The notes below the pieces were generated by a model that saw only the letters and a program-made list of their open reading frames with translations, ran no database searches and was not told where the DNA came from. From NCBI GenBank assembly GCA_041742135.1, contig JBGSJG010000008.1:96518-160517 (forward strand): 64,000 bases of DNA. The letters run 5' to 3'. The position numbers and the translations under genes are program-made. Positions 3,331-57,498 of the stretch are shown here, one piece after another (within the stretch, counting starts at the first letter, position 1; every line of letters begins with the position of its first letter). This stretch comes from Patescibacteria group bacterium. GTDB lineage: Bacteria > Patescibacteriota > Microgenomatia > UBA8517.

Positions 3331-4080
3331 GTGTTATTTATGGAGAAAAATCAACAGAACTACAAGAACTTGTCTATCGTTATCCCTGTCTATAATGAAG
3401 AAAAATACATTACAGAAATACTTAGCCGTGTAGTGAAGGCTGATTCTCTTAAGCTCACTAAAGAAATAATTATTGTCAACGACGGCTCGACAGACAAAAC
3501 CCGAGCAATCCTCGATAAACTAGAAAAAGAATATAAAAGAAAGAAGATAAACATCTCAATTTTTCATAAAAAAAACGGTGGGAAAGGCACTGCCGTAAAG
3601 TATGGCTTCACGAAAACCCATGGTGACATTGTCATTGTTCAGGATGCCGACTTGGAATATGACCCTAACGACTACACCCTTTTATTATCTCCATTTTTCA
3701 GAAGTAGCGCCGATGTGGTTTTTGGCTCGCGCCTTGTTACAGCTGAGCCTCACCGAGTTCTTTACTACTGGCACTCTGTAATAAATCATTTCTTTACAAC
3801 TCTTTCGAACATTTTTACAAACTTAAATTTAACTGACATGGAAACCGGTTATAAGGCCTTTAGGGGGGAGCTAATACGTGAGATTGCGCCGAAACTGGAA
3901 AGTGCAAAATTTGGATTTGAGCCAGAAATCACAGCACGAATCGCAAAAGTTAAGGGAGTAAAAATTTATGAAGTAGGAATATCCTATTCTGGAAGAACTT
4001 ACGAGGAAGGAAAGAAAATCGGTTGGCAGGATGGTGTTAGAGCAATTTGGGAAATTATTAAATATAACCTTCTTTCATGA
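3331..4080 (+). CDS. GT2 polyprenyl-phosphate glycosyltransferase (ArnC/GtrB/DPM1-like)
   Basis: 249 aa. LSIVIPVYNEE, IIVNDGSTDKT and the DxD motif VQDADLEYDP. Short soluble GT-A with a C-terminal amphipathic region, typical of polyprenol-P-sugar synthases. Confidence 0.8.
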   Translation: MLFMEKNQQNYKNLSIVIPVYNEEKYITEILSRVVKADSLKLTKEIIIVNDGSTDKTRAILDKLEKEYKRKKINISIFHKKNGGKGTAVKYGFTKTHGDIVIVQDADLEYDPNDYTLLLSPFFRSSADVVFGSRLVTAEPHRVLYYWHSVINHFFTTLSNIFTNLNLTDMETGYKAFRGELIREIAPKLESAKFGFEPEITARIAKVKGVKIYEVGISYSGRTYEEGKKIGWQDGVRAIWEIIKYNLLS

Positions 4081-5774
4081 AACGAATCGCGCGACTAATC
4101 CCTTGGCAACTTGTTGCTGTTTTAGTCGTTGCGCTCTTTCCGCTTCTTTTAACTTTTAAAAACATATCAGTCGGGTTGGTAGATTGGCGTGACTATCCAT
4201 TTATTGTTTGGGTGATGGAGCAAAACGTACGAAGTATTGTGAGTCTTGATTTTGCCGGTCTTGCAAACACGAATGGCTACTACCCTTTCGATGGCACAAA
4301 ATACCTATCTGATCTTCTGATTCCCCAGTCGATACTAATGCTCCCGCTAGGGCTTTTGACAAATAATTTGATCTTGAAATTTAACTTGGTATTTGCATTA
4401 ACAATTTTTCTGAATATCATTACGACCTACTATTTTTGGTTTTCGATTTTTAAAGACAGAAAGATTGCAGCAATTGGGAGTTTTTTGACTTCGTTTTCCC
4501 CATTTTTCCACTCAAACATCAACCATTTTCAGATGATTACCTTCTGGCCTTTTTTTGCAGCACTATTTTTCTTGTTTAAAGAACGAGAAAAGGCGAAAAC
4601 CTATGTGTATGTTGGGGTGTTGTTGGCAGTTCAGTTTTTGGCCAGTGCGTATTTGGGGGTGTTTTTAGCCTTTGTTGTTTTGGCCTTTGCCTTGTCTCAA
4701 AGTTTAACTAACAAAAATTTAAGCTTCATTAAATATTTTGGCATAGCGATCCTGATTTTTTTGGCAATCGACGGTGTGTTTATAAAAGGCTACATTGACG
4801 CGAAAAGCCAGTTTGAAATCGTACGAGGCTACACCGAATATATTTTTTACTCCGCACATGCGGCCGATTATCTTTTTCCTAAAGCAATAAACTCTATCGT
4901 TTATCGTTTGCCGCTATTTGGCAATTGGAACGCTTTGAGTGGCCACTTTGGTGAGGCAGCCCAATTCCCTGGATTTTCAGTATTGCTTTTGGCTGTCGTT
5001 GCATTAATAAAAAATCAAAAAGACAAAGGATTTTTTGTAGGTATTAAGTTTGGTAAATCTGAACTATTTTTTGTCACATTGATACTTGCAGGTTTTCTTT
5101 TTTCACTGGGACCTAGGCTTCAGTTTAACGGTAATTATGACCATCTTCCTTTGCCCTATCATTTCGTAGTCAAGTATCTACCCCTTGTTAACTCTGTAAG
5201 GACTCCTGGAAGGTGGAGTTTTATTTTCTATATTGGGCTTATTTATTTTGCCCTTAAAGCAATGAGCAAAATTAAAAGTAAATTTCTGTTTACTGCCATT
5301 GCAGTTTTTATGCTTTTTGAGTATTTGCCGATATCTATTCCAAGTGAAGTGCAGTCATATGTAGACCAAAATGACCATGTATTGGTAAATGAATGTCAGA
5401 AAGACAACTTGGTTGCTCTTCAAATCCCTGTCACGCATTTTGATGTCAAAGGAGGAATTGTTGAAGGCCTAAGCTACATCACGAAAGAAGAGCTGGCTAG
5501 CCTGTATCACGGCTGCAGGTTTGTTAATGGCTACAGTGGGTACGATCTACCGCATATTCAAGGAATTAAAAACGGACTTTACGAGTCGCTTAATGTTTAT
5601 AACCCAGAGCTGTTTTATGAAACAATTGTTAACTCTCAAGCAGAGCTTATCGTGATTAACCGTCAGCACATACTTTTGGAGCTTGAAGAAAACCTTCTGC
5701 CAACACTTAGTTTACTTGTAAACGAGGGCAAGTTAGAACAAATTTCCCAGTGGATATATAAGGTGAATAAATGA
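4077..5774 (+). CDS. GT-C-type integral membrane glycosyltransferase (ArnT/YfhO-like)
   Basis: 565 aa, more than 10 hydrophobic helices. An acidic first-loop motif (VDWRDYPF, VMEQN) and a C-terminal soluble domain. ATGA overlap with the upstream GT2 and the downstream methyltransferase. Confidence 0.5.
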   Translation: MKRIARLIPWQLVAVLVVALFPLLLTFKNISVGLVDWRDYPFIVWVMEQNVRSIVSLDFAGLANTNGYYPFDGTKYLSDLLIPQSILMLPLGLLTNNLILKFNLVFALTIFLNIITTYYFWFSIFKDRKIAAIGSFLTSFSPFFHSNINHFQMITFWPFFAALFFLFKEREKAKTYVYVGVLLAVQFLASAYLGVFLAFVVLAFALSQSLTNKNLSFIKYFGIAILIFLAIDGVFIKGYIDAKSQFEIVRGYTEYIFYSAHAADYLFPKAINSIVYRLPLFGNWNALSGHFGEAAQFPGFSVLLLAVVALIKNQKDKGFFVGIKFGKSELFFVTLILAGFLFSLGPRLQFNGNYDHLPLPYHFVVKYLPLVNSVRTPGRWSFIFYIGLIYFALKAMSKIKSKFLFTAIAVFMLFEYLPISIPSEVQSYVDQNDHVLVNECQKDNLVALQIPVTHFDVKGGIVEGLSYITKEELASLYHGCRFVNGYSGYDLPHIQGIKNGLYESLNVYNPELFYETIVNSQAELIVINRQHILLELEENLLPTLSLLVNEGKLEQISQWIYKVNK

Positions 5775-6835
5775 AAAAGAAATCAGTTGTAAATCTAAAT
5801 AGTAAAATCTACTACCAAGGCAAGTACTGGAATGATATCCCCATGGTGCTTCGGTACATGTCAAAAAATTTTACAGGAGACCCTCACAAATGGTGGACTG
5901 AAGACTTTATGGAAAAGTTTGGCCAAAAGCCATTTAAACACGCTTTGTTTTTAAATTGCGGTGACGGAAGGCATGAGATAGAGTTTTACGACAAAGGAAT
6001 TGCCAAAAAAATTACAGCCTTTGACATATCGCCTGAATTAGTAAAGATAGCTAATTCTCACAAAGGTAGGAGAAGAATTAAATTTATTGTTGCCGATGCT
6101 AACAAAATCAAATTTAAGAAAAATGAATTTGATTTAGTAGTTAACGTTGCAGCGCTTCACCATGTGCAATACATTAATCGTCTGTGCCGTGAAATTGCAA
6201 ATGCTCTTACGCCACAGGGCTTAATAGTTAATTTTGATTATGTTGGCTCTCACAGAAACCAATACTCACTTTTTTCTTGGGTAATTGTTAGGTTAATTAA
6301 TAAATTATTGCCGAAAAATGTCAGAAAAGGTCCGATCGGCTATCCTCATATTCCGACAATGCTGGCAACCGACCCCACCGAAGCGATCCATTCGGAGCTA
6401 ATCGAGCAGATGCTTGGAAGATATTTTAAAATTGTTAAAAATCGCAGGACAGGTGGAGGAGTGGCGTATGATATCTTGACCCACAATAACAACCTTAATA
6501 AGTTGAAAAAAGATGAGCTAAATAAACATGTTTCGAGGATTTTGTTTTTGGACAGGCTGTTTGTCTGGATGGGAATTTCTCCAAATCTTTTTTCCTATAT
6601 CATCGCTATGCCAAATAAAAAAATACTTACTGATAAAATTCAAATTTCTACTTGGCAGAGCCAAGAAAACATGCGTGAGGAAATTGCGTACGCAAATCGG
6701 GGAGTGTATGGCTTTAAAGATTATTGTAGGTTAGTACTTAATAGTCACGGATTTCTTGATCGAGCATATCTTATTTCCAAATATATAAAGAATCTTCCCA
6801 AAGTAGTTAAGTATAATCTTGGAATATATGATTAA
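5771..6835 (+). CDS. Class I SAM-dependent methyltransferase
   Basis: 354 aa. LNCGDGRHE, AFDISPELV, IKFIVADANKIKFKKNEFDLVVNVAALHH. Clear paralog of the 8315 methyltransferase. Translationally coupled to the flanking GT-C genes. Confidence 0.65.
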   Translation: MKKKSVVNLNSKIYYQGKYWNDIPMVLRYMSKNFTGDPHKWWTEDFMEKFGQKPFKHALFLNCGDGRHEIEFYDKGIAKKITAFDISPELVKIANSHKGRRRIKFIVADANKIKFKKNEFDLVVNVAALHHVQYINRLCREIANALTPQGLIVNFDYVGSHRNQYSLFSWVIVRLINKLLPKNVRKGPIGYPHIPTMLATDPTEAIHSELIEQMLGRYFKIVKNRRTGGGVAYDILTHNNNLNKLKKDELNKHVSRILFLDRLFVWMGISPNLFSYIIAMPNKKILTDKIQISTWQSQENMREEIAYANRGVYGFKDYCRLVLNSHGFLDRAYLISKYIKNLPKVVKYNLGIYD

Positions 6836-8318
6836 AGCTGTCCTGAAGCATTGGCCACTTCTGTGGCTTGTCGTAGTTTATGTTCTTTTCTCGCTTCTTA
6901 CCGCTCGAGATTTTGGTGTTGCTTGGGACGAACAAGAGATATACGCCAGATCAGCATTTTTGATAAACTACCTGCTTGGCCGCGTCGACTACAACTTGTA
7001 TCTTAAAGACACATACGGCCTGTTTTACAACCATCTTCACGGTCTTTTTTTGGTCTTATTAAACCCCAAAGGCACTTTTGGAATCTATCATTTTCTAAAT
7101 ATGCTATTTGCGGTTCCAATGTATGTTACTGCTTATCTATTGCTGTATAAAAAATACAAGCAAGTAGTATACGCGATTATCGGCCCTGCCTTTTTGTTGT
7201 TAATACCAAATTTACTTGGCCACATGCCAATCAATCCAAAAGATGGCTCGTTTGCAGTGTATTACTTTATCTCCTTGTGTGCAATTTATCTTCTGAGGAA
7301 TTTTAAAAATCCGAGTGCAAAGATTTTACTACTTGGAGTCATGTTTGGGTTTGCACAAAGCGCAAGAATTATTGGATTTACACTTTTCATAATTTTTCCG
7401 ATCTATGAACTTTTTTTTGGACCCCAGCGGATAAATATTCACAAATTTGTTTTCATTGCTTCGCAAACAGTCGCAATTTTTGTGGTAGCCAATTTTGTTT
7501 TAGTAGTAAGTTGGCCATATCTAGGCGCTAATTACCTAGCGCATATGGTAGAAATCTTTAATTCTGCCAAAAGCTATCCCTGGAATGGTAGTGTGCTATT
7601 TGATGGCATTGCAACTCCAGCAAGTGAACTACCAAATACATATCTGCCAAAATTGTTTTTGATTACCACGCCATTGTTTATACTTACTTTTTTTGGATGG
7701 GTTGCTGTAAAAGCAAAGAAAATTATTAAAGACGACATGCTATTTTTGTTTATGTTTGCTTTTACGCTAAACGTGTTTTTATATTTCTCCCTCAGGCCCG
7801 TCGTCTATGATGGGTTAAGGCACTATCTTTTTTTGCTTCCAATCATAGGGTTAGTCTCTGCAATTGGGTTTATCGATTACTTCAAAAGTTCAAGAAAGAC
7901 AATACTTAAAAAATTAGTGTTGATTTTTGTTGTTGTAAACGTCCTTAAAGTTGTTTTTGAAATGATAGTTTTACATCCTTACGAGTACGTTTATTTTAAC
8001 GAGATCGTAGGCGGGCTTCCTGGGGCATATGAGAAGTACGAGACAGAGTATATGGGAATATCCCACAAAGATGCCATAATGTGGTTAAAAAAGAGTGAAA
8101 TATCTGGCGATCGCGAGTATTTTGTAGTTAATTGTGGCCACCCGTTCTCCGGCATGTACTATCTTCGCGACAATATGCGTTGGACCGAAAAAGTGGAAGA
8201 AGCAGATTATCATGTTTGCTATACACGCTTTAACAACCATTTAGCTGTTTCAAACGACAAAACAATCTATATAATTAAACGGTTCGGAGTTCCAATAAAT
8301 TTTATTAGAAAACTATGA
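6819..8318 (+). CDS. GT-C-type integral membrane glycosyltransferase
   Basis: 499 aa, polytopic. First-loop acidic motif GVAWDEQEIY and a C-terminal globular domain. Possible paralog of 4077..5774. Confidence 0.5.
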   Translation: MEYMIKAVLKHWPLLWLVVVYVLFSLLTARDFGVAWDEQEIYARSAFLINYLLGRVDYNLYLKDTYGLFYNHLHGLFLVLLNPKGTFGIYHFLNMLFAVPMYVTAYLLLYKKYKQVVYAIIGPAFLLLIPNLLGHMPINPKDGSFAVYYFISLCAIYLLRNFKNPSAKILLLGVMFGFAQSARIIGFTLFIIFPIYELFFGPQRINIHKFVFIASQTVAIFVVANFVLVVSWPYLGANYLAHMVEIFNSAKSYPWNGSVLFDGIATPASELPNTYLPKLFLITTPLFILTFFGWVAVKAKKIIKDDMLFLFMFAFTLNVFLYFSLRPVVYDGLRHYLFLLPIIGLVSAIGFIDYFKSSRKTILKKLVLIFVVVNVLKVVFEMIVLHPYEYVYFNEIVGGLPGAYEKYETEYMGISHKDAIMWLKKSEISGDREYFVVNCGHPFSGMYYLRDNMRWTEKVEEADYHVCYTRFNNHLAVSNDKTIYIIKRFGVPINFIRKL

Positions 8319-8968
8319 AAATACAAAATGTCGGTAAATGGAACGACGAAATGTTTTCAAAGCATCCGACTCCATATACGGGGTTTGCAGGCTTAGTGGA
8401 AAAAATTAGGATTAGAACTATCTTGGCGGACGCCAACATCGGCCCTAAAGATAAAGTGTTAGAAATAGGTTGTGAAGCTGGGAATTTAATAACATCGATC
8501 AATACTAGCGATAAGCTTACAGGATTTGACATTTCCAAGGAAGCTCTCGGCAATGCTAAAAAACTAGCACGCAAACTTGGCAAAAAAATCAAATTTGTTC
8601 AAGGTGATGCGACTAAGAAATTGCCATTCAAAAAGGGAGAATTCGACGTAATAATTTGCTCTGAAACGCTTGAGCATGTTTTAGATCCAGCGAAAGCGAT
8701 TGATAGAATTTGGGAAATTGCCGGGAAAAAGTCGCGAGTGATCATAACAGTTCCGAACGAGAAACCAAAGCTGGTCGTTAAAAAATTACTTAAGAAATTT
8801 CGCATTATGGACCTGGTAATGCCAGGGATAGAAGACAAACAGAGTGAATGGCACATTCATGCTTTTTCAAAACCTATGATTCTTAAGCTTCTTAAAAAGA
8901 ACTTTAAGATTGAGCGCGTGGGCTCGATCTTGGGGCTTCATGTTATTGTCAGCGCTCGTCCAAAGTAA
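8315..8968 (+). CDS. Class I SAM-dependent methyltransferase
   Basis: 217 aa. LEIGCEAGNL, GFDISKEAL, IKFVQGDATKKLPFKKGEFDVIICSETLEHVLDP. ATGA overlap with the upstream GT-C. Confidence 0.7.
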   Translation: MKIQNVGKWNDEMFSKHPTPYTGFAGLVEKIRIRTILADANIGPKDKVLEIGCEAGNLITSINTSDKLTGFDISKEALGNAKKLARKLGKKIKFVQGDATKKLPFKKGEFDVIICSETLEHVLDPAKAIDRIWEIAGKKSRVIITVPNEKPKLVVKKLLKKFRIMDLVMPGIEDKQSEWHIHAFSKPMILKLLKKNFKIERVGSILGLHVIVSARPK

Positions 8969-10388
8969 TCAGTACTTTCTCGTTGTCAAAAAGTTTGGGA
9001 ATGCCCTTTTGTACAAAAGAAGGTCTGTAAACCCTGATTCGCTCGATTACTTCATTATTTTTTCTGTAAACGTTATTGACATAAATATAATTATTTTCAA
9101 GCATGTACTGAGCCAAAATTGGATCGTGGAACCATGCGTTTCTGTTATACATTATTTCCCCGGGGAGTAAATTAGCCCACCAAGCCCATTCGAGTTGGTA
9201 AGTTGTCAAAAAATTTAGATAGAAACTAAAAACGAAAGTAGTCGCGACTAGAATTTTTGCAATTTTCCTGTTTATATATTTTAAAGAATAGCTTGTGAGG
9301 AATATGTAAATTGGGACGGATTCTGATAGTAACCGTGCGTTTAGTGCCCCCCCTCCTATCCACATCCACCAGGATGAAGCAAACGCCACAAAAAGTATTG
9401 CCACAGGCAATATCGCTGTCAGAAAGAGTTCTTCTTCTGTTCTTTCCTCACGTCGCCTAGCGATTTTCCAAGCCCCAAGCACGCCAAGAAGCAATAATGG
9501 AGAGTAAAAGAACAAGCCAAAATTGAAACTAAAAAGAATTGATATTACGTTACGGATGAACTTTTCAAGGCCCCATGTCGTAAGAGAGTAGGACATTTCA
9601 CTTTCCAAACCATAAGGTACGCCGAGTTCTCGGTACCAAAGTGTAATAAACCCATAGGTAAGCGCAAAGCCTAACCCTATAACAAACATTTTCTTGAACA
9701 ACTCTTTAGTAATTCCACTTTTTGCCACAATTAATGCAAAAGGAAAAAATAAATAAAGTACATTACTAATTCTGACTTGAGTAAAAAGTCCAGCGATTAA
9801 TCCTGCTACCAGAAAAGGAAATAATTTGTTTTTTGCGCTTAGTAAAATCCACACATAAAGCATAATTAGAAAAAGTGAAACTCCGTGCATTGTATTGGCT
9901 TGAGATGCGGTGTTAAAAATATTAGTGCAAAATACATAAATCGCAGTCATAAGTAACGGTTTTGCATGCCCTTTTGAAAATCGGCTTAATATCAGAAATA
10001 CAAATATTACAGAAAGAGATGTGTAAAGTGATGCAGTAATTTTTCCTGCATACTGGTGATATGCAGAGTTAAAAATCTGCGTTTCTGTTAAATAGTCAAT
10101 CCCAAAATATTTGTTAACTAGATAGAATGGTGGAGTAGACAAAAGGCCAACTAGTGGTGGAGATTTAGAAAACACGATTCCATTTTCATTAGTAACCTTA
10201 ATGCCTGCAAGGCCACCTTCATCGATCAGTTCTTTGTAGTTTGTTAAGTCAATGCGGTTTTCAAAAATGAGATTCATGGCCACAAAGTTGTTTGGTATCG
10301 AATCAGTAGTAGGAAAAAAGCGAAGTGAATGCGTAAAAGAGAAAAATGAAACCAAAAAAACAACTAAAGCTAGTAAGATTTTTTTCAT
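8949..10388 (-). CDS. Polytopic membrane protein, putative GT-C-type glycosyltransferase
   Basis: 479 aa. N-terminal signal/TM, a large first extracytoplasmic loop, then about 10 TM helices. Placed next to a GT2/DUF2304/oxidoreductase set. Confidence 0.4.
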   Translation of the reverse strand: MKKILLALVVFLVSFFSFTHSLRFFPTTDSIPNNFVAMNLIFENRIDLTNYKELIDEGGLAGIKVTNENGIVFSKSPPLVGLLSTPPFYLVNKYFGIDYLTETQIFNSAYHQYAGKITASLYTSLSVIFVFLILSRFSKGHAKPLLMTAIYVFCTNIFNTASQANTMHGVSLFLIMLYVWILLSAKNKLFPFLVAGLIAGLFTQVRISNVLYLFFPFALIVAKSGITKELFKKMFVIGLGFALTYGFITLWYRELGVPYGLESEMSYSLTTWGLEKFIRNVISILFSFNFGLFFYSPLLLLGVLGAWKIARRREERTEEELFLTAILPVAILFVAFASSWWMWIGGGALNARLLSESVPIYIFLTSYSLKYINRKIAKILVATTFVFSFYLNFLTTYQLEWAWWANLLPGEIMYNRNAWFHDPILAQYMLENNYIYVNNVYRKNNEVIERIRVYRPSFVQKGIPKLFDNEKVLITLDER

Positions 10389-18345: not shown

Positions 18346-19584
18346 ATGAAGGTTTTGTTGGTTGCTGATGTCGGAAGAACTGATTATGGTTTTTATCATG
18401 TTGGTGACGAAGCCATGTTTTATGAAACAGTCAGATGGTATAGCAAAAACAGACCTTTGTATGCAATTGGCGCTCTATCTAGGTCCACAACTCGTAAAAA
18501 TTTGAGGGTTAAAGAATATCAACATCTGTCTTTCCCGCCCCAGGATTGGACCGCGAGAAAATACTTATTCAAGTTGATTATTAAGAATTTACTGTTCAAA
18601 TTTACGGGGATAATAAAATTCAATTCTGTTGAGCTTAACTTCGTTCAACTTGTGCAGAAATATGATCTGATTCACTTTTGTGGCGGCGGTAATTTCTATA
18701 GTATTTCTGTTTCGTGGTTATATTATGCCTTTTACATTATTTTTTTGGGGAAAATTTATGGAAAAACTACAATTTTAACTAGCCAGACAATAGGTCCTTT
18801 TCGAGGGATCGATAAAATATTTGTGCCTATTTTTTTGAATATGCCAAAGCTTATCGGTGTGCGAGAACCTTCAGACGATATTACTTTATATAAGCACAGA
18901 GTAATTCGACCAAAGGTGATATCTATGATTGATAAGGCCTATACACTACCAAGCATTAAATCTACATTAGTGGTACAAACCAAGAAAACAAAAATCGGTT
19001 TGAGCCTACATCGGTGGCAGGGCGTGGAAGATAATATGATTAACATAGTGTTGAAAGCATTAAATGAGATAGCGAAAACAAAAGACATTGAAGTATTTAT
19101 TATCCCCCACATTATCGTTAAAGCTGATAATGATTGGGACAACTTGTATATGAGCCAAATAATTAGCAAATTAAATAAGCAGATAAAGGTAAAGATTGTC
19201 AAATACAGTGATTTAACCAAATCTAAGAATGAACCTGCATGTTTAGTAAAGCATATTACCTCAAAAATGGATGTTCTAATATCTTCGAGATATCATGGAC
19301 TTGTTTTTGCACTGTCTGAAAACGTTCCTTGTATGTCTTTTTCGATGGGCGAGTATTACAAAAGTAAAAACGAGAAGGCACTGAAGTTCTGGTACGGGGA
19401 AAGGTATTCGGATTACATCTTCAGTCTCGAAAATTATAATCCAACACTATTCACAAAAAAATTAAACTCAATACTTGAGGATCTACCAAAACAAAAACTG
19501 GACTTAAAAGTGGCAAATCAAAAATTATCATCAAGCAAATCCATATTTAACCTTCAAGGTGTCCTTGAGATTACAAAATGTTAG
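18346..19584 (+). CDS. Polysaccharide pyruvyl transferase family protein (CsaB/WcaK-like)
   Basis: 412 aa. N-terminal Rossmann-like MKVLLVADVGRTDYG...HVGDEAM and the family's characteristic C-terminal ISSRYHGLVFAL. Confidence 0.65.
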   Translation: MKVLLVADVGRTDYGFYHVGDEAMFYETVRWYSKNRPLYAIGALSRSTTRKNLRVKEYQHLSFPPQDWTARKYLFKLIIKNLLFKFTGIIKFNSVELNFVQLVQKYDLIHFCGGGNFYSISVSWLYYAFYIIFLGKIYGKTTILTSQTIGPFRGIDKIFVPIFLNMPKLIGVREPSDDITLYKHRVIRPKVISMIDKAYTLPSIKSTLVVQTKKTKIGLSLHRWQGVEDNMINIVLKALNEIAKTKDIEVFIIPHIIVKADNDWDNLYMSQIISKLNKQIKVKIVKYSDLTKSKNEPACLVKHITSKMDVLISSRYHGLVFALSENVPCMSFSMGEYYKSKNEKALKFWYGERYSDYIFSLENYNPTLFTKKLNSILEDLPKQKLDLKVANQKLSSSKSIFNLQGVLEITKC

Positions 19585-20703
19585 TTAAGATAGCAACATC
19601 TTCTTGTAACTTCTTAAAAGCATCTTAAATATTAGCCATCTGGCATGCAAACGAGGAAACGGTAGATTTTTCAAAAGATCCCACCAAAGGAACAGTCTGT
19701 GCTTTGGTTCTATAAGTAAATTTAGTAAATGATAGGGAGGGATGCGCCCCATCGTTTTAAAGTTTTCCAGGGCACCAACCGAGTCAAGTTGCAGCATTGT
19801 TCTTAAACACTTATGGCACTTTGAGCAGTTATACGCACCTCCAATGTTCTCGTAGCATACACGTAAATGATCTTGAGCTAGTTTGTAATCGCGTATAAAA
19901 AATGTTTTTTCTGATCGTTTAAGTCCGGACCCAGACGAGTATATCTTTAGTGTTTTTGTAGACCACAAGCGATCAAGATCTGGGTGTGTGCCATACGGGG
20001 CATAGGAAAGATTTGCGTCTTCCGAGTTAAAAGCAACTACATCAAGCCCTTTGGCTAATAAATATGAAACCGATGCTAAAGCTGCGCCGTGCCCGGCATC
20101 CCATCTGACCGCTTCTTGCACAAACCCTTTTAGATTAGTTTTTACTACGATTAACTTCTTTTCTGTTTTTTTGGCAACCTTCTTGGCGTTTTTTAATACC
20201 ACGGAAAATAACTTTTTATCATTCAGAGCAATATCAAATCCATGTACGAGAATTAGATGAGTAAGACGTGTGGATTTACGTATTTCTGATTTCTTTAATG
20301 TATAAAACGAGTCTAGTCCCAAAGAAAAGAAAGCTCCTTTACCTTTCTTTACGGAACGTATTGAAACTGCTTTTGTTGTCGATGTAGCAATATTAATGGG
20401 ATAAAGTTTCGACCAGGAATCTGTGTCAGGCCAAGAGCTTGTTAGTTTCATGACTTTGTACAAACTGTTAAGTAGGTCTTGGGATATCGATTCTTCGATA
20501 ATAAGTTCCTCCTTAAATCGCATGGACATAAATAGCAAAATCGGAAGAAATACCTCTGGCCCCAGCGAAAGTAAATTGCGATTTGAAGCCTCGGTCTCAA
20601 ACCAGATTTCGTATTTTTTGTCCAAAGAAGGACTTGTGACAAAAGCTGAAAGTCGAATATTGCCTTTTCTGAATGAAATACGAGATCGAGAGAGTTTCAC
20701 CAT
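19585..20703 (-). CDS. QueC-like PP-loop superfamily protein with a C-x9-C-x2-C-x2-C zinc motif and a roughly 130-aa N-terminal extension; PP-loop degenerate (SLGLDS)
   Basis: 372 aa. FFSLGLDSFYT sits at the PP-loop position and CYENIGGAYNCSKCHKCLRT matches QueC-type Cys tetrad spacing. Paralogous over its whole length to 20723..22153. Confidence 0.45.
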   Translation of the reverse strand: MVKLSRSRISFRKGNIRLSAFVTSPSLDKKYEIWFETEASNRNLLSLGPEVFLPILLFMSMRFKEELIIEESISQDLLNSLYKVMKLTSSWPDTDSWSKLYPINIATSTTKAVSIRSVKKGKGAFFSLGLDSFYTLKKSEIRKSTRLTHLILVHGFDIALNDKKLFSVVLKNAKKVAKKTEKKLIVVKTNLKGFVQEAVRWDAGHGAALASVSYLLAKGLDVVAFNSEDANLSYAPYGTHPDLDRLWSTKTLKIYSSGSGLKRSEKTFFIRDYKLAQDHLRVCYENIGGAYNCSKCHKCLRTMLQLDSVGALENFKTMGRIPPYHLLNLLIEPKHRLFLWWDLLKNLPFPRLHARWLIFKMLLRSYKKMLLS

Positions 20704-20722
20704 GATATTATAAACCTAAACC

Positions 20723-22153
20723 ATGTTGATTAAAAAAGGATCAAAATTAACAAAGCTAAGAATGAAACATGGCGGATTGGTGTTTGAAAGTTTTGATGAA
20801 CGGTATGACGGCGCTTCGTTGATAGTTGGGTTCTCATATTTACTTGAACCAGATTTTAAAATAAGAAATGAGATTGTATTTCCGAATGTGTCAATCGGGC
20901 GTTACGAGCAAATTAAAGGAGATGGGCTGAGTAATCTGTTTTTTCATCTAGGCTTAGGAGAGATGATGCTTATGTGGAGATTTGCTTGTCCCCAGAACAT
21001 AAAAATTAAAGCCGGATACTTAAACAACAAACAGCTCCTTTTTTGGAAAGATGTGTTCACTGCAGGATTCGGCGAATTTTATTATAAAGAGAAAATAAAT
21101 TTTAAGAAAAAAGATTTTTTGTTGTTTCATGTCTTAGGCAAAAAGACAAAACCCGCACTTTTCAAAGGGCCTCTAATAGACAGAGACCTACTTTTAACAA
21201 CTGGCGGTAAGGACTCGGCAGTTACAATGGAGATTTTGAGAAATAGTGAACGAGAAATAGCATGCTTACTCCTTGATCCTCAAAAGTCCGCAATACAAGC
21301 GTGCCAAATTGCAGGTGTAACGTCAATTACACTCTCCAGGAGAGAAGATGATAAATTGTCAAAACTCGTAGGGAAAAAATATTTTAATGCGCACACCCCC
21401 TGGACTGTTTATCTATCGCTGCTATCAACTGTCGCTAGTGCCATTTACAATTATAAGAATGTCATCGTTTCCAACGAAGAAAGTGCCAATGAAGGCAATG
21501 CCGTCTTTTTGGGTATGCCGATAAATCACCAATACAGCAAAAGCATAATATACGAGAATGATTTTCGGGAATACCTGGTACATTATCTATCACTACGTAC
21601 AAATTTCTTTAGCTTCTTGAGACCATTGCAAGAACTACAGATATGTAAGCTGTTTGCAACGATGAGACAATATCACAACACTTTTAGAAGCTGTAATGTT
21701 GGAATGATGGCGGGGGATTGGTGTTTAAATTGTGCCAAGTGTCTTTCTATCTATTTGACTTTGTACCCTTTTATGGGTAAAAAGTTGCATCCTATATTTG
21801 GTGAGCGATTTTTGGACAAAACTGAGTTACTACCTTTGCTTTGTGGGTTAATGAATGTGAAAGGTAAGACAAAACCTTTTGAGTGTGTGGCGACCATCCA
21901 CGAAATTAAAGTAGCAGTATTTATGTGTAGGCAGAAAGCAAAACTTGAAGGCGAAAAACCTTTTAAGTTGCTTGAATATGTTAAGAGATATGAAGAAAAC
22001 GATATTGCTTGCCTAAATTATTGGAACAAGAACAACAATCTACCCACTTCTCATAAAAGAATTCTTAGAAACGTTTATAATGAGACTAAGCCAGATTCCT
22101 ACTTGGTACCGGAAGAGCGTTTTACAATCTTCAGAAAGTTATTTTTCAGCTAA
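20723..22153 (+). CDS. QueC-like PP-loop ATP pyrophosphatase-family protein (candidate sugar amidotransferase or other adenylating enzyme) with zinc motif and long N- and C-terminal extensions
   Basis: 476 aa. Intact PP-loop LLLTTGGKDSAV, an SNEESANEG block, and CNVGMMAGDWCLNCAKCLSI (C-x9-C-x2-C-x2-C). Divergent from its paralog, with start codons only 19 bp apart. Confidence 0.5.
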   Translation: MLIKKGSKLTKLRMKHGGLVFESFDERYDGASLIVGFSYLLEPDFKIRNEIVFPNVSIGRYEQIKGDGLSNLFFHLGLGEMMLMWRFACPQNIKIKAGYLNNKQLLFWKDVFTAGFGEFYYKEKINFKKKDFLLFHVLGKKTKPALFKGPLIDRDLLLTTGGKDSAVTMEILRNSEREIACLLLDPQKSAIQACQIAGVTSITLSRREDDKLSKLVGKKYFNAHTPWTVYLSLLSTVASAIYNYKNVIVSNEESANEGNAVFLGMPINHQYSKSIIYENDFREYLVHYLSLRTNFFSFLRPLQELQICKLFATMRQYHNTFRSCNVGMMAGDWCLNCAKCLSIYLTLYPFMGKKLHPIFGERFLDKTELLPLLCGLMNVKGKTKPFECVATIHEIKVAVFMCRQKAKLEGEKPFKLLEYVKRYEENDIACLNYWNKNNNLPTSHKRILRNVYNETKPDSYLVPEERFTIFRKLFFS

Positions 22154-24507: not shown

Positions 24508-25581
24508 ATGGACGCTGTTCGATTGGTCACAAAGTATTTTATGGTTTGGCGTCTTCTACTGTTTTTTCCATTGCTTCTTTCAGGTAATCTTCCCATGCGT
24601 TTAGCTTATGTGTATCCGTATCTGCAAAATCCTCTCCTTTCAATTTGGGCAAATTTTGACGGGGTTCACTATATTTCTATAGCTTCAGCAGGCTATGCCA
24701 ATCAAGCAGCATTTTTTCCTCTGTATCCGATGATTCTTAGAATGCTCGTTTTTGGTGCAGCAAATATAAATTACTATTTAGTTAGTGGACTACTAATTTC
24801 CAATATAGCTTTTTGGGCAGCGCTTGTAGTTTTTTACAAATTGATACGTTTGGATTATTCCGATTCAGTAGCAAAGTGGAGCGTAGTATTTATGCTTACT
24901 TTCCCTACGGCATTTTTTTTCGGAAGTGTTTATTCAGAAAGCTTGTTTTTACTTCTACTTCTATTGTCTTTTTGGTTTGTACGCAAAGGCAACTGGCTTA
25001 TGGCTTCTGTCTTTGGAATTTTTGTGTCTGCAACGCGTCTTGTTGGTGCTCTGCTTGCCCCTGCGCTTTTATTGATTCAACGCCGCGTAGTATTTTTTCT
25101 AATTCCAGTTGGGACTCTAGCCTATGCAGTTTTTAATTATTTTCGCTGGGGAGATCCACTTCATTTCATTAAAGTACATGGAGAACTTTCAAATGGCAGA
25201 TCTACTGAGTCTATGGTTTTAGTTCCTCAGACTATTTTTAGATACGCCAAAATTCTATTTAGTTTATCGCCTTCGCAGTTTGAATGGTGGATTTCGGCTT
25301 TGGAACTTTCAGTCTTTGTTTTGGTAGTTTATTTACTCTACAAAGCTGTGAAGCTCAAAGTTTATAAGTCGTATGTAGCGTTCAGCGCATTTGCATTTTT
25401 AATTCCCGTGAGCTCCGGAACATTTAGCGGGCTTCCAAGATACGTACTTGTTTTATTTCCGATTTATATAGTACTGGCAATGATAAAAAGTGATACAACA
25501 AAGAAGCTAGTCGCAATTCTTTTTGCCTTTTTGTTGACAATTCTTTTAATGTTTTTTTCAAAGGGTTATTTTATAGCATGA
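24508..25581 (+). CDS. GT-C-type membrane glycosyltransferase (PIG-V/GT87-like mannosyltransferase fold candidate)
   Basis: 357 aa, polytopic. The first-loop motif WANFDGVHYISIASAGY resembles the conserved loop of PIG-V/DUF2029-type GT-C enzymes. Confidence 0.45.
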   Translation: MDAVRLVTKYFMVWRLLLFFPLLLSGNLPMRLAYVYPYLQNPLLSIWANFDGVHYISIASAGYANQAAFFPLYPMILRMLVFGAANINYYLVSGLLISNIAFWAALVVFYKLIRLDYSDSVAKWSVVFMLTFPTAFFFGSVYSESLFLLLLLLSFWFVRKGNWLMASVFGIFVSATRLVGALLAPALLLIQRRVVFFLIPVGTLAYAVFNYFRWGDPLHFIKVHGELSNGRSTESMVLVPQTIFRYAKILFSLSPSQFEWWISALELSVFVLVVYLLYKAVKLKVYKSYVAFSAFAFLIPVSSGTFSGLPRYVLVLFPIYIVLAMIKSDTTKKLVAILFAFLLTILLMFFSKGYFIA

Positions 25582-29670: not shown

Positions 29671-30207
29671 ATGAAACTTCTTGTCCGATCTGTTTTTGTC
29701 GCAATCACTTTATTATTAATCTTTTATGTGAGTAGGCCCTCTGCTGATTTTCCGCCTCCTCCGTCAGGAGCTAAGCAGTCAATGGAGCCAGCTGACACAG
29801 AGACACCACTTCGCCGAGCATATTTTACTGATTTTACCCGAGAAGAAATAATTGCTCATTACCAAAAAGAGTTTATTGGTTTTCCCACTCTTCGCCTAAA
29901 CTATCCTCCCGAGGATGCACAAACCATCATTCGTGATCAGACCAGAAGCTATTACTTGGAGGAGTTGGCTCATCCACTGCGTGAGTCTTTATACATCAAC
30001 GGTTTTGTCCCACAACACAAAAAGGACGCAATCCTGATTGACGGGGTCGAGTATTACCAGAAAATTACTATAAAGTATGTTCCAAGCTCAAGCGCTGCTA
30101 GGATAGTTTACGTCTTGGCATTTTCGGGGCTTACTTATTTTGTTTTTAATGAACTAACGAAACTTCTGACCTCGTTTGTAAAATTTATATTTTCATTTTT
30201 TAGATGA
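29671..30207 (+). CDS. Hypothetical membrane-anchored protein
   Basis: 178 aa. N-terminal TM, a proline-rich linker (PPPPSG), and a C-terminal hydrophobic segment. No recognisable family. Confidence 0.35.
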   Translation: MKLLVRSVFVAITLLLIFYVSRPSADFPPPPSGAKQSMEPADTETPLRRAYFTDFTREEIIAHYQKEFIGFPTLRLNYPPEDAQTIIRDQTRSYYLEELAHPLRESLYINGFVPQHKKDAILIDGVEYYQKITIKYVPSSSAARIVYVLAFSGLTYFVFNELTKLLTSFVKFIFSFFR

Positions 30208-39919: not shown

Positions 39920-41971
39920 ATGCCACCAGAAGATATCCCACAAATAAAGCCGCCTTCTGTCTTAGATCCACCTCAGATCAAGCTTGCCCCGGAGCCTGTT
40001 TTAAGCTCCAACGAGCTCCACCTAGGTGCTGTTGAAGCAGATTTGCCTGTATTGGCAAAAAAAAGACGTTTCAAGCTTCCTAATTTCAAAATAAAATTAA
40101 AGAACAAGAAAGTGTTGCTCCGTGTAGGTTTAGTTCTTGGCGTACTTTTGGTTTTAGTGGCAATTTTAGTCATAGTTCCAGTACTATCGCTTGTGGGAAG
40201 TGGGCGAGCTCTGGCCACTGGTGCTGATAAGCTTAAAGCTTCGGTCGACTCAAAAGACATAACAGTTGTAAAAAGTAGCCTGCAGGATTTTCAAGCTAAA
40301 TTCCAAGATTTTGATTCTAAATACAAAAGACTGTCTTGGGCGGGAGCTTTGCCGTTTGTAGGCGTGTATTACAAAGATGGTATTGCAGGTTTAACAGCAG
40401 GCAAAAGCGCTCTGGAAGCTGGCTGGATCGTGACGGAAACAATCGAGCCCTATGCTGACATTATTGGATTTGGCGGACCCGGTGGAGAACTCGGTGACTC
40501 GGCGAACGACAGAATTGATTTCTTAATCCAGACTATTGGAAGCATCTTGCCTCGCGCAGACGAGCTTGTGGTTAAAGCCCGTGCCGCGAATGAAGAACTC
40601 GCAAAGATTGACCCCAATCGCTATCCTGAGGAGTTTCGTGGCATTGAAGTACGCGCAAAGCTGGCAAAATATTTGGAGCTTGCCCAAGAAGCAACAAACT
40701 TTATCGCTAACAGTAAGCCACTTTTGGAATCAGCCCCCTATCTTTTAGGTACTGATGCTCCCCGCACATATCTTCTAATTTTTCAAAACGACAAAGAGCT
40801 TCGGCCAACTGGCGGCTTTTTGACGGCTTATTCAATTGTCCAGGTGAGTAACGGCAAGATTCAGCCAGTGAGTTCAAATGATATTTACAATTTAGATAAC
40901 AAGTACACTCCAACGATTGAAGCGCCCGAGGTAATCCGCAAATACCTTGAAGGCCCTTATCTTATTTCAGACAACCTGAGGCTTCGCGATATGAATTGGT
41001 CGCCCGATTTTAAGGAAGCGATGGAGATGTTCTTGCCGGAAGCCGAGAAGGCGGGGATTGCGGATATCGATGGTGTTATCGCAGTGGACACACAAGTAGT
41101 TGTAAACATCCTAAATGCTATTGGCACAGTCGATGTTCCTGGATATGGGCAATATAGCACCAATCACGACGAGCGCTGTGCTTGCCCGCAAGTGATCTAC
41201 GAGCTTGAGAGTTTTGCCGATGTTGAAGGCCCGATCGTCTGGAGTGAAAACGAACCAGGGAAAATTGTATTTGCCCCGCCAAATTATTTGAATCGAAAGG
41301 AAATAGTGGGTCCTTTGATGAATTCGATTTTGTCCAACGCCCTGGGCCAGCCAAAAGAAAAATTGCCACTTTTGTTTGAAGCTGGTTGGAAAAGTTTAAT
41401 TGAAAAACATGTGCTTTTGTATATGTATGATGCAAAGGCTCAAGAAGGTGCTGAAGCATTTGGTGTAGCTGGTCAATTGAGTGAATTCGATGCGGACTAT
41501 GTCCACATTGTCGATGCCAACCTAGGAGGCAGAAAATCAAATTTATATGTAACGCAAGAAGTTCACCACGAGATTGAAATTGATGGCGAAGGAAATATCG
41601 TCAAGACGCTAGATGTCACCTATCAAAACCCAGAAAAATACGATGGGTGGCTAAATTCCGTGCTTCCTAATTGGACACGAATTTATTTGCCTAAAGGTAG
41701 CGAAATTTTGGACCAAGTTGGTTTTGAAGACCCGGGAGAAGTATATGAAGAGTTTGGAAAGACTGTAGTTTCTGGAGGCTTTGAGTTGCGCCCAGAAGGA
41801 GTCAAAAAAGTAACGATCAAATACAAGCTCCCTTTCAAAGCTAAAGACAAGTATGAACTGATGATTCAAAAACAGGCAGGCACAGACGCTCCTCTCCACA
41901 CAATTACTGTTGGTAAAAAGAGTGAAGAATTTTACCTTAGGAGTGATCGCACTCTTCGGATTGCGCTATGA
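39920..41971 (+). CDS. Large membrane-anchored extracytoplasmic protein of unknown function (size and context reminiscent of DUF4012 proteins that follow priming sugar transferases)
   Basis: 683 aa. A single TM at about residues 60-90 (VLLRVGLVLGVLLVLVAILVIVPVL), otherwise hydrophilic. DUF4012 attribution is unverified. Confidence 0.4.
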   Translation: MPPEDIPQIKPPSVLDPPQIKLAPEPVLSSNELHLGAVEADLPVLAKKRRFKLPNFKIKLKNKKVLLRVGLVLGVLLVLVAILVIVPVLSLVGSGRALATGADKLKASVDSKDITVVKSSLQDFQAKFQDFDSKYKRLSWAGALPFVGVYYKDGIAGLTAGKSALEAGWIVTETIEPYADIIGFGGPGGELGDSANDRIDFLIQTIGSILPRADELVVKARAANEELAKIDPNRYPEEFRGIEVRAKLAKYLELAQEATNFIANSKPLLESAPYLLGTDAPRTYLLIFQNDKELRPTGGFLTAYSIVQVSNGKIQPVSSNDIYNLDNKYTPTIEAPEVIRKYLEGPYLISDNLRLRDMNWSPDFKEAMEMFLPEAEKAGIADIDGVIAVDTQVVVNILNAIGTVDVPGYGQYSTNHDERCACPQVIYELESFADVEGPIVWSENEPGKIVFAPPNYLNRKEIVGPLMNSILSNALGQPKEKLPLLFEAGWKSLIEKHVLLYMYDAKAQEGAEAFGVAGQLSEFDADYVHIVDANLGGRKSNLYVTQEVHHEIEIDGEGNIVKTLDVTYQNPEKYDGWLNSVLPNWTRIYLPKGSEILDQVGFEDPGEVYEEFGKTVVSGGFELRPEGVKKVTIKYKLPFKAKDKYELMIQKQAGTDAPLHTITVGKKSEEFYLRSDRTLRIAL

Positions 41972-45418: not shown

Positions 45419-46249
45419 ATGCATGAACCTGTATTAGTTAGTGAGGTAATTGATTATTTGCACATTCAAAATAACGCACAGTACATAGACGCGACCTTGG
45501 GAGCGGCTGGGCACAGCTTAGAAATTCTTAAAAGAGGCGGAATGGTTTTAGGAATAGAAGCAGACCCTGCGATGCTAAAGTTTTCAAAAAAACGAGTGGG
45601 AGAAGCCTGCCCTACACTTGTTTTAGGTAACTTCAGAGATATCGCAAAAATCGCTCGCGGAAGCGGATTTACAAATGTGTCTGGGATACTTTTTGATCTT
45701 GGGATTTCAAGCATTCATTTTGATACCGATGCTCGTGGGTTTTCCTTTAAAGACCCCAGCTCACCTCTTGATATGAGGCTAAATCCTGAAGTTCAAGCTG
45801 TAACCGCAGCTGATTTGTTAAATAGTTTGGACCAAACTCAGTTAACGAATTTGTTTGAGTCGTCAAGGTTAGCACGCGATGTAGTAAACGCCAGAAAATT
45901 TAAGAAATTTGCTTTAGTTGGCGATTTATTGTCACTTTTTGAGGGAAAAACGCGAGGCAAAATTCATCCAGCTACCAAGGCTTTTATGGATTTGCGTATC
46001 GCGGTCAATAGCGAGCTGGACAATATCGCCGAGGCTTTACCGGATGCATTTGATCTTTTGGCCAAAGGCGGAAAATTGTGCGTAATATCTTTCCACTCTG
46101 GTGAAGATCGGATTGTTAAAGAGAATTTTAGACGTCTGGTTGATCAGGGCATAGCAGAAGCGACCGACTTGATTCTACCTAGTCAATCAGAAGTCGAGCG
46201 AAATCCGAGGTCCCGAAGTGCAAAGATGCGAGTTTTAACAAAGTTATGA
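45419..46249 (+). CDS. rsmH: 16S rRNA (cytosine1402-N4)-methyltransferase RsmH (MraW)
   Basis: 276 aa. YIDATLGAAGHS, FDLGISS, with a conserved C-terminal SQSEVERNPRSRSAK. Confidence 0.9.
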   Translation: MHEPVLVSEVIDYLHIQNNAQYIDATLGAAGHSLEILKRGGMVLGIEADPAMLKFSKKRVGEACPTLVLGNFRDIAKIARGSGFTNVSGILFDLGISSIHFDTDARGFSFKDPSSPLDMRLNPEVQAVTAADLLNSLDQTQLTNLFESSRLARDVVNARKFKKFALVGDLLSLFEGKTRGKIHPATKAFMDLRIAVNSELDNIAEALPDAFDLLAKGGKLCVISFHSGEDRIVKENFRRLVDQGIAEATDLILPSQSEVERNPRSRSAKMRVLTKL

Positions 46250-46536
46250 ATAAAACAAAATTGATGGTTTTGATTTCTGTAATAGCCGCAGCTGCTCTGA
46301 TGGTGACAGTCGCGGTTGGCTCCAGTCTTTGGGGCTCTGAGCTTCATGAGCTGGAGAACGCTATTTCTCAACTTGAGGAAGAAAATAAAGTAACACAGGA
46401 AAAAATTGTCCAAGGAACTTCTTTGACGGCGCTGTATGAAATCCGCGAAGAGCTAGGATTTGCCAAACCTTCAAGAGTGATTTATATGGGGGATCATACA
46501 TCAGTTGCCCAAGCGCATAATGGAGCTTCGAATTAG
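46246..46536 (+). CDS. ftsL: FtsL-like cell-division membrane protein
   Basis: 96 aa. A single TM then a coiled-coil (LHELENAISQLEEENKVTQEK). In the canonical position between rsmH and ftsI. Confidence 0.5.
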   Translation: MNKTKLMVLISVIAAAALMVTVAVGSSLWGSELHELENAISQLEEENKVTQEKIVQGTSLTALYEIREELGFAKPSRVIYMGDHTSVAQAHNGASN

Positions 46537-48250: not shown

Positions 48251-48288
48251 TTAGACTGACTTGCGTGAAAAGTGTATAATTTGCACAC
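48251..48288 (+). promoter_or_regulatory. Putative internal promoter for murA with an extended -10 (TGTATAAT, 48273-48280) ending only 8 nt before the ATG, implying a leaderless or near-leaderless transcript
   Basis: ttagac (48251-48256), an 18-nt spacer, then tgTATAAT. No Shine-Dalgarno sequence between the -10 and the start codon at 48289. Confidence 0.35.
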
Positions 48289-49575
48289 ATGAATCTTCGC
48301 GTTTATGGCGGTACGGCGCTTTCCGGAGAAATTACTCCTTCAGGGAGTAAAAACGCTATAGTGGCGCTTCTTCCTTCAACTCTTCTGTTTGATAAACCAG
48401 TAACATTCACAAACGTCCCCGACATTACCGATGTAGGCAGACTTGTAAAAGTATTAACTGCGTTGGGTGGCAAAGTTGACTGGAATAAAGCAGAGAAGAA
48501 GATGGTTATAGATAACTCGAATGTATCCATGAAGGGTTTGGGAAAAGAAGAGGTCGGAAATATGAGGGGCACGGCACTTTTATGGGGGCCAATGTTGGCA
48601 CGTTTCAGAAGTGTAGCATTTGATGAACTTCCCGGAGGTTGTACATTAGGAGTTCGCCCGCTAAACCCTCATTACGATGCTTTTGAAAAATTGGGAGTTA
48701 AAGTTGACGCGAGCTTTAAAAGTACAAAAATGGATGCCGCAAACGCTCGCTCAGCTGACTTTTGGCTCACTGAAATGAGCCCAACCGTGACTGAGAACGT
48801 GATAATGTTTGCGACTTCGCTCCCCGGAAAAACAAGAATAACCGGTGCTGCTTCTGAGCCCAATGTTCAGGATCTCTGTGTCTTTTTAAATAAGTGCGGA
48901 GCAGATATCAAGGGAGTTGGCTCAAGTATTTTAGAGATCGAAGGCGGCAAGCCATTGTCTCCCGTGGAGCACAAAGTTATAAGCGACCATTACGAGATTG
49001 CAACTTTCCTTTCGCTCGCCGCGGCAACCGGAGGCGAAATTTCAATTAAGGATGCTATCCCTGAGCATTTTTCTTATATCAACCATATATTCTCGCGTTT
49101 TGGGGTTAATGTAATTTACGAGGGTACTACTGCAAAGATTGCCAGAAACTTAGAGCTTTCGATTCACTGCGAGAATGGACCTCTTCAAATAAAAGCTCAG
49201 CCATGGCCGGGATTACCAGTGGATTTACTTCCGATATTTATGCCACTGGCACTTGCCGCTCCTAAAAATGCAGCCCTTTTTCATAATTGGATGTATGAAT
49301 CTGGATTGTTTTGGACTTCAGAATTTTCAAAATTTGGTGCAAATGTTCTTCTGTGTGATCCTCATCGTGTGCTTATAACAGGCGGGCACAAACTTTACGG
49401 CAGTGAAATCGAAGCCCCATACATTATTCGAGCGGTGGTGGCCCTCATGATGGCAGCCATGATTGCTGAGGGTGAAAGCACAATACTAAACGCGGATGCA
49501 ATTCACCGGGGGCACCCGGACTTTGCTGAGAACTTAAAGAGTTTGGGTGCTAAAATCGAGGAAATTAATGGTTAA
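48289..49575 (+). CDS. murA: UDP-N-acetylglucosamine 1-carboxyvinyltransferase MurA
   Basis: 428 aa. SGSKNA, a catalytic Cys in LPGGCTLGVRP, and a conserved EPSP-synthase-like fold. Confidence 0.9.
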   Translation: MNLRVYGGTALSGEITPSGSKNAIVALLPSTLLFDKPVTFTNVPDITDVGRLVKVLTALGGKVDWNKAEKKMVIDNSNVSMKGLGKEEVGNMRGTALLWGPMLARFRSVAFDELPGGCTLGVRPLNPHYDAFEKLGVKVDASFKSTKMDAANARSADFWLTEMSPTVTENVIMFATSLPGKTRITGAASEPNVQDLCVFLNKCGADIKGVGSSILEIEGGKPLSPVEHKVISDHYEIATFLSLAAATGGEISIKDAIPEHFSYINHIFSRFGVNVIYEGTTAKIARNLELSIHCENGPLQIKAQPWPGLPVDLLPIFMPLALAAPKNAALFHNWMYESGLFWTSEFSKFGANVLLCDPHRVLITGGHKLYGSEIEAPYIIRAVVALMMAAMIAEGESTILNADAIHRGHPDFAENLKSLGAKIEEING

Positions 49576-57495: not shown

Positions 57496-57498
57496 AAA

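Follow-up and report, generated by a model that had tools for sequence, protein, structure and literature searches.

A 64,000-nucleotide stretch of DNA from a Patescibacteria group bacterium (GenBank assembly GCA_041742135.1, contig JBGSJG010000008.1, positions 96,518 to 160,517; the whole stretch is called the window below) contains two adjacent, divergent genes, here called A and B, which encode enzymes with the fold of 7-cyano-7-deazaguanine synthase QueC, a pyrophosphate-binding loop (PP-loop) and a four-cysteine motif. The reading preferred here, with a probability of about 0.6, is that these are two separate enzymes: B belongs to the MurL family of ATP-dependent epimerases, and A is an active-looking member of an uncharacterised family that is partnered with polysaccharide pyruvyl transferases and most likely adenylates a carboxylate of a glycan. 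A preliminary description of the window had instead pictured A and B as paralogs along their whole length, forming a two-component module in which A, with a degenerate ATP loop, might be a non-catalytic partner. That description placed the two open reading frames (ORFs) correctly, with their sizes (about twice that of QueC) and their divergent orientation, in a real glycan cluster beside a pyruvyl transferase gene. The motifs that it quoted are all found in the translations, namely SLGLDS (A residues 127-132), TGGKDS (B residues 160-165), NSEDANLSY, SNEESANEG, CYENIGGAYNCSKCHKC and CNVGMMAGDWCLNCAKC. The locus is arranged as follows:

18346..19584, plus strand: polysaccharide pyruvyl transferase (PF04230, E 2e-17), convergent with A and abutting the A stop codon
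19585..20703, minus strand: gene A, 372 residues, from a large PP-loop family that resembles QueC and MurL, has no name and is linked to pyruvyl transferases
20704..20722, no strand: A-B spacer, start codon to start codon, 19 bp, divergent, read from the sequence
20723..22153, plus strand: gene B, 476 residues, MurL-family ATP-dependent epimerase of a divergent clade

Gene A has no match in Pfam, NCBIfam or PADLOC, and its homologs are all unannotated. Searches of the PDB with A, as a single sequence and as a profile, returned designed helical repeats alone, which were judged spurious. The family is nonetheless very large. Its profile, which scores 420.8 bits on a database protein identical to A (P0121), picks out 9,683 clusters (50% identity) at E<=1e-3, of which 4,576 reach E<=1e-30, the weak end of these matches possibly taking in other PP-loop families. 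At least 513 loci are present in species-representative genomes from many phyla, and the carriers include Rhodococcus, Aliagarivorans, cyanobacteria, Planctomycetes and Bathyarchaeia; Aliagarivorans taiwanensis and Rhodococcus tibetensis, with the homologs at L071 and L051, are among the cultured ones. Some genomes have two to four tandem copies (L041 from an Okeania sp., L084, L053, L068, L027 and L063 among them), and tandem A-A fusions of 640-850 residues occur among database proteins. A literature search for a PP-loop or QueC-like enzyme tied to pyruvyl transferases or polysaccharides found nothing relevant, and neither MurL nor glycan-linked groups are mentioned in a survey of the QueC family from 2026 (PMC13329287). 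The structural model of A is confident, with a predicted local distance difference test (pLDDT) score of 95.7 and a QueC/Cap9-like fold, and three elements can be located within the gene:

20353..20703, minus strand: N-terminal domain, residues 1-117, a beta-meander plus helices in the secondary structure of the model, with no family assignment
20308..20325, minus strand: pyrophosphate-binding loop SLGLDS, residues 127-132, from the translation
19807..19857, minus strand: QueC-like four-cysteine motif C283-x9-C293-x2-C296-x2-C299, a predicted zinc site, from the translation

Residue conservation was counted in 196 family sequences. The invariant positions include G129, D131 and S132 of the loop (essentially invariant across the family), G155, D157, T189, N190, R263, K266 and the four cysteines, and C283, N292, C293, C296, K298 and C299 are found in 194 of the 196 sequences. 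Every element of the family signature (FFS/T-x-G-V/L-D-S, HGFD, TN, W..HG, R263, K266 and C..YNCxxCxKC) is present in A. The commonest loop hexamer is SGGVDS (69 sequences), with SAGVDS in 29, TAGVDS in 28 and SLGLDS in 6; position 128 is Gly in 107 members, Ala in 58 and Leu in 19. Around A there is a Leu-128 subclade of about 16 proteins, in which the leucine is kept down to about 30% identity and several members have no MurL nearby. The NSEDAN block of A is a feature of this subclade, so that the conserved acidic Ser/Asn block of the preliminary description holds within MurL but not across family A.

These counts bear directly on the proposal that A, with a degenerate ATP loop, has no catalytic role of its own and serves the catalytic enzyme B as a partner or regulatory subunit. 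A leucine does indeed stand where canonical PP-loops carry their first glycine, and the two genes are adjacent and divergent. However, A retains G129, D131, S132 and all of the other polar residues that are invariant in the family, the leucine is stable throughout its subclade even where MurL is missing, and the usual partners of the family are pyruvyl transferases rather than MurL (see below). Furthermore, Cap9, an active QueC-family enzyme, has a pyrophosphate loop described as SXGXDS, in which both serines are essential. Since the A loop fits SxGxDS and the remaining invariant residues are intact, a non-catalytic role for A is very improbable. A appears to be active, and SLGLDS, in a family whose commonest loop is the canonical SGGVDS, is a stable subclade variant fitting the functional SxGxDS motif rather than a sign of decay.

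The genomic partners of family A were surveyed at 80 diverse loci, taking in up to 10 kb to either side, and adjacency was counted at the 66 loci where a crude gene caller recovered A, the remaining 14 being excluded. A PS_pyruv_trans gene, its identity as a pyruvyl transferase confirmed by Pfam, is directly adjacent to A at 21 of these 66 loci, on the same strand in 17 of the 21 and with gaps of -22 to 104 bp. Ten more loci have one within 5 kb and a further three within 10 kb, for a total of 34 of 66. MurL or MurD homologs were found near A at none of the 80 loci, which argues against A and B as a general two-component module. Gene fusions show the same partnership: P0312 consists of an A domain (residues 1-385) followed by PS_pyruv_trans (residues 425-757, E 1.7e-44), and the family A proteins P0257 and P0244 also bear PS_pyruv_trans. 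Other members of the family are fused to a family 2 glycosyltransferase (GT2) or to an S-adenosylmethionine (SAM) methyltransferase, and the wider context of A loci includes genes for GT2 and family 4 (GT4) glycosyltransferases, NAD-dependent epimerase/dehydratases and RmlA-like proteins. The convergent arrangement of A and the pyruvyl transferase seen in the window recurs at L001 and L089, the latter without MurL. By both adjacency and fusion, the conserved partner of family A is thus the polysaccharide pyruvyl transferase and not MurL, and a functional link of A to pyruvylation is very probable. Family A is best placed among the QueC/MurL-type adenylating enzymes as a large variant group, still uncharacterised, whose partner is a new one, and B is a divergent member of a known family.

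What A might do with such a partner can be approached from its relatives. Among solved structures, QueC (PF06508; PDB 3bl5) ranks first or second as a match for A and for B alike; in all three, the PP-loop lies at the N-terminal end of the domain and a C...CxxCxxC motif towards the C-terminus, and the chemistry of QueC is carboxylate adenylation. A and B differ from QueC in having an extra N-terminal domain of 120-150 residues, a helical C-terminal extension and no queuosine-pathway neighbours, and the PF06508 profile has no match to either at E<=1. The zinc motif of QueC is C(x)8CxxCxxC (PMC13329287). Compared with this x8 spacing and the SGGxDS loop of QueC, A and B have x9 and the loops SLGLDS and TGGKDS, respectively; the cysteine motif quoted in the preliminary description is invariant in both families, with a spacing one residue longer than that of QueC. 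Cap9/QatC proteins belong to the QueC family and deazaguanylate proteins in anti-phage systems (PDB 9nto); A and B differ from them in their glycan-biosynthesis context, and the sequence identity is about 12%. A defence-system QueC homolog was rejected as an identity for the genes, there being no PADLOC match and no CBASS or Qat neighbours, and a DndC/PAPS reductase identity was rejected for both A and B because there was no PF01507-type hidden Markov model (HMM) match.

Two other enzyme types with PP-loops deserve mention. If the four cysteines of A held a [4Fe-4S] cluster instead of zinc, A could be an iron-sulfur-dependent sulfur-insertion enzyme of the TtuA/NcsA/LarE type. This is improbable, because the C-x9-C-x2-C-x2-C motif at the C-terminal end of the domain matches the zinc motif of QueC and not the three-cysteine cluster sites of LarE and TtuA (PMC13329287), and because neither sulfur-carrier nor cysteine desulfurase genes are prominent among the conserved neighbours of A. 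The WbpG/WbuX/PseA proteins (TIGR03573; PDB 8wex) are likewise PP-loop enzymes of glycan clusters, and both the fold and the location of A would suit an N-acetyl-sugar amidotransferase of this type, making acetamidino sugars. Nevertheless, A has no NCBIfam match at E<=1, in a library expected, although not confirmed, to include TIGR03573 (WbuX), and neither a TIGR03573-type HMM match nor a HisH/HisF-like partner was found for A or B. The absence of HisH/HisF-like genes had already been pointed out in the preliminary description, and it extends to the annotated window ORFs and the conserved A neighbours alike. An amidotransferase of this kind is very improbable.

The characterised QueC-fold relatives (QueC, Cap9/QatC and MurL) adenylate a carboxylate of the substrate, which is followed by attack of a nucleophile or, in MurL, by epimerisation (PMC8788868, PMC13329287); in Cap9, carboxylate adenylation is followed by attack of an amine. 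Since the relatives adenylate carboxylates and a pyruvyl transferase creates a new one, the most economical model has A adenylating it. The pyruvyl transferase would add a pyruvate ketal, and hence a new carboxylate, to a sugar of the glycan. A would then bind ATP via its SxGxDS loop and adenylate the ketal carboxylate or a neighbouring one, and attack of an amine or ammonia on the adenylate would yield an amide or a related derivative. The data establish the family membership, the fold, the conserved motifs and the link to pyruvyl transferases by neighbourhood and fusion, while the molecule that A acts on, its activation by adenylation and the attacking group are inferred; the specific proposal that the pyruvate-ketal carboxylate is the one activated for amidation or related derivatisation is a tentative one, at somewhat less than even odds.

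Several points weigh against this account of A and B as two separate enzymes. Roughly one A locus in two lacks a pyruvyl transferase within 10 kb, and at a subgroup of 8 loci A is translationally coupled instead to a PEMT/ICMT-like membrane methyltransferase, which constitutes a second, different conserved context for the family. The substrate is deduced from genomic context, and the function of an A protein with leucine for the first loop glycine is judged by motif comparison. To our knowledge, no amidated pyruvate ketal has been described in a natural glycan. Finally, the clade to which B belongs is unusually diverged, and one related locus, L086, keeps a tight A-B pair amid entirely different neighbours, with no pyruvyl transferase within 10 kb. 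These last two observations hint at a real functional link between A and B in this lineage, a possibility taken up below.

The PEMT/ICMT-coupled loci (L008, L010, L011, L014, L015, L022, L038 and L040; also L004/L005) mostly have TAGVDS or SAGVDS loops. Here A overlaps the downstream methyltransferase gene, and the pair is flanked by genes for a flavin adenine dinucleotide (FAD) monooxygenase and a rhomboid protein, again with no pyruvyl transferase.

Judged from its sequence, B is a full-length member of the described family MurL and not an unknown. It matches NF041275, the model of the experimentally characterised MurL of Xanthomonadales, with E 7.8e-54, residues 21-407 of B aligning with positions 10-398 of the 447 in the profile. 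At 182.8 bits, the match does not reach the lineage-specific equivalog cut-off of the model (700 bits); the seven other Patescibacteria MurLs checked also fall under it (231-269 bits). The database protein P0001, which is 100% identical to B over its 457 residues, has both PF26299 (MurL_N) and PF26298 (MurL_epimerase_C), and the same two domains are present in all 120 listed homologs of B. The preliminary description had proposed an undescribed two-component modification module, with clear full-length matches of both proteins to a characterised family as one finding that would overturn it; for one of the two genes, B, such a match is now found. The features of B are these:

20723..21172, plus strand: MurL_N domain, approximately residues 1-150, from the Pfam annotation of P0001 and the model
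20987-20989, plus strand: C89, in MurL_N, invariant in 120/120 sequences
21200..21217, plus strand: PP-loop TGGKDS, residues 160-165, from the translation
21692..21742, plus strand: cysteine motif C324-x9-C334-x2-C337-x2-C340, from the translation
21884-21886, plus strand: C388, after the zinc motif, invariant in 120/120 sequences

All six cysteines (C89, C324, C334, C337, C340 and C388) are invariant among the 120 MurLs and present in B, which also keeps the xGGKDS-loop signature of the family as TGGKDS. C89 and C388 are candidate acid/base residues for the epimerisation, and family A has no equivalents of them. The AlphaFold 2 (AF2) model of B is confident (pLDDT 93.3), and in a structure search the closest solved fold is QueC (3bl5, target TM 0.70), followed by TtuA; since QueC is the best match, the original comparison with QueC was right at the level of fold. 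In PDB sequence searches, the B family profile matches the PP-loop of TtuA (E 3.3e-5), and nothing beyond this was found with either the single sequence or the profile. MurL is an ATP-dependent epimerase whose proposed mechanism involves adenylation of the Glu alpha-carboxylate, and a 2021 minireview described it as having no known conserved domains (PMC8788868).

How A and B relate to one another can now be considered. BLASTP of one against the other finds nothing significant (E 0.27). With deep alignments, hhalign matches A residues 118-307 to B residues 151-348 over 171 columns (52% probability, E 1.4e-4), with the PP-loops (SLGLDS/TGGKDS) and the cysteine motifs in register; a shallower alignment gave a probability of 31%, and reciprocal HMM searches gave cross-matches of 20-25 bits. 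The N-terminal domain of A has no sequence similarity to MurL_N (hhalign probability 0.4%). Even so, the order of elements is alike in the two models, consisting of three strands, a short helix, a long helix, a strand, a helix and a strand, and we infer from it a possible parallel between the two domains. The likeness of A to MurL is thus a remote one in the PP-loop/cysteine-motif domain, plus the similar N-terminal secondary-structure order, and A differs from MurL in matching no MurL model, in lacking C89 and C388 and in its genomic partner. A and B are remote homologs over the PP-loop/cysteine region and not recent duplicates, so that the paralogy once suggested along their whole length is retained for this region but not for the N-terminal domains. 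The two proteins share what is probably an ancient QueC-type PP-loop ATP-pyrophosphatase domain and belong to separate families with separate usual partners.

Although B is a MurL, it is an unusual one. Its clade consists of only three proteins in a database of 5.8 billion, namely B, P0002 (65% identity) and P0003 (61%), and the next matches have identities of at most 48%. Of 110 positions that are at least 90% conserved in the 117 MurLs outside the clade, its members depart at 20-25 (B itself at 24), whereas those 117 depart at 2 in the median and at no more than 12. One change lies directly beside the invariant C89, where SYWK becomes LMWR, and the loop TGGKDS is restricted to the clade, GGGKDS being found in 107 of the 120 MurLs. 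The clade scores 183-200 bits on NF041275, versus 231-269 for the seven other MurLs, and has the lowest median identity in the set. Among Patescibacteria homologs of B, MurL-MurD fusions are common, and a standalone murL overlaps a downstream murD-like ligase gene in Daviesbacteria, Curtissbacteria and another relative; unlike these relatives, B neither adjoins murD nor is fused with it. In summary, B shares with MurL the two-domain architecture, the loop and the six cysteines, and differs in its lack of a murD association, in its 24 deviant columns and in a score 40-85 bits lower on the outgroup model. The B clade is rare, lies outside the usual murL-murD operon and, from these sequence comparisons, is fast-evolving.

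The absence of murD extends beyond the immediate surroundings of B. A tblastn search of the 64-kb window using MurD domains as queries found no MurD, nor did an NCBIfam scan of ten ORFs over 48.3-61.6 kb (the dcw region). The window contains a dcw-type peptidoglycan and division cluster at 45419-61634, with mraW, a penicillin-binding protein (PBP) gene, murA, a murC-murB fusion (49547-52030, 827 residues), murE, ddl, mraY, ftsW, murG and ftsA. In this cluster ftsW (57499-58614) comes immediately after mraY (56335-57495), so the place between them that murD canonically occupies is empty. Inside the cluster, on the opposite strand (54533-56367, minus), are genes for a 401-residue Mur ligase, which resembles MurF weakly (125.6 bits against a cut-off of 288.6), and an alpha/beta hydrolase; a comparable hydrolase/Mur-ligase pair adjoins murL or murL-murD at L090 and L094. 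Since the dcw cluster lacks murD, a MurD2/MurL route is probably needed for peptidoglycan synthesis, and B may be the MurL of that route. B may still be the peptidoglycan MurL of the cell, or it may be a diverged paralog.

The A-B pair is found in three related genomes, those of the window, L001 and L086; the two besides that of the window are the assemblies GCA_964540475.1 and Logan ERR13624443. It is divergent in all three, with spacers of 19, 17 and 21 bp, respectively. The adjacency is therefore specific to a small lineage and does not define a general two-component system. At L086 (6774-8863), the nearest upstream genes encode a RimK-type ATP-grasp protein (of an amino-acid ligase family) and a PF01553 acyltransferase, with no glycan cluster. 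Since the pair is kept in these new surroundings, it has survived rearrangement within the lineage, and this survival, together with the accelerated divergence of B, leaves a lineage-specific link between A and B as a rival to the two-enzyme reading.

In its explicit form, this rival supposes that A adenylates a glycan carboxylate (for example that of a pyruvate ketal) and joins it to an L-amino acid, and that B is a neofunctionalised MurL paralog that epimerises the terminal residue to the D form, so that the surface glycan would receive a peptidoglycan-like D-amino-acid cap. The closely spaced divergent pair persists despite the changed L086 neighbours, and all three members of the B clade are paired with A. 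The many departures from conserved MurL columns (including the one beside C89), the low scores and identities and the loss of the murD adjacency of relatives would also fit a change of function, and the use of an amine in place of ammonia would have an analogy in Cap9. However, the three genomes are closely related and shared ancestry could account for the pairing; MurL is missing from the surroundings of the 80 other A loci, and the close A relatives P0124, P0125, P0126 and P0128 have no adjacent MurL. Furthermore, no second, canonical MurL is known from the three pair-carrying genomes, and with no murD in the dcw cluster, B may simply be the housekeeping MurL. On balance this rival is unlikely, although cooperation of A and B in the three pair-carrying genomes is possible. 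Still more doubtful is a combined scheme, in which family A generally derivatises pyruvylated glycans by an undescribed ATP-dependent step and has in this lineage recruited a neofunctionalised MurL: A would ligate an amino acid to the pyruvate carboxylate and B would epimerise it to D, giving a peptidoglycan-like D-amino-acid stub on a surface polymer other than peptidoglycan.

With respect to the surroundings of the pair in the window, annotation of the ORFs shows GT2 and GT4 glycosyltransferases, methyltransferases and a DegT aminotransferase around A and B, and the same glycan cluster also encodes a Wzm/Wzt-type ABC transporter, Wzy_C and Bac_transf proteins and a mannose-1-phosphate guanylyltransferase. 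An HMM search found no further paralog of A or B within the window. Pfam, at the thresholds used, gives no match for six sizeable ORFs of the glycan cluster (28-1146, 4077-5774, 6819-8318, 8949-10388, 24508-25581 and 29671-30207); the first of these has 372 residues, the same length as A, yet is a paralog of neither A nor B. At the end of the glycan cluster, the gene of the Bac_transf initiating transferase is immediately followed by one for a DUF4012 protein of 683 residues (39920-41971).

These findings matter for both families. MurL is here seen to have a QueC-type adenylating domain, a zinc-type motif and two extra invariant cysteines; the domain fits the adenylation mechanism proposed for the enzyme, and the two cysteines suggest candidate acid/base residues. 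The B clade may represent the first known case in which a MurL-type epimerase has been recruited away from murD. Gene A opens a way into a very large family of enzymes, spread over many bacterial phyla and Bathyarchaeia, that has been given neither a name nor a Pfam or NCBIfam model. That its members repeatedly adjoin pyruvyl transferases, or are fused with them, predicts a further chemical step on pyruvylated glycans which current schemes of glycan biosynthesis do not include, and because cultured carriers such as Aliagarivorans and Rhodococcus exist, this prediction is directly testable.

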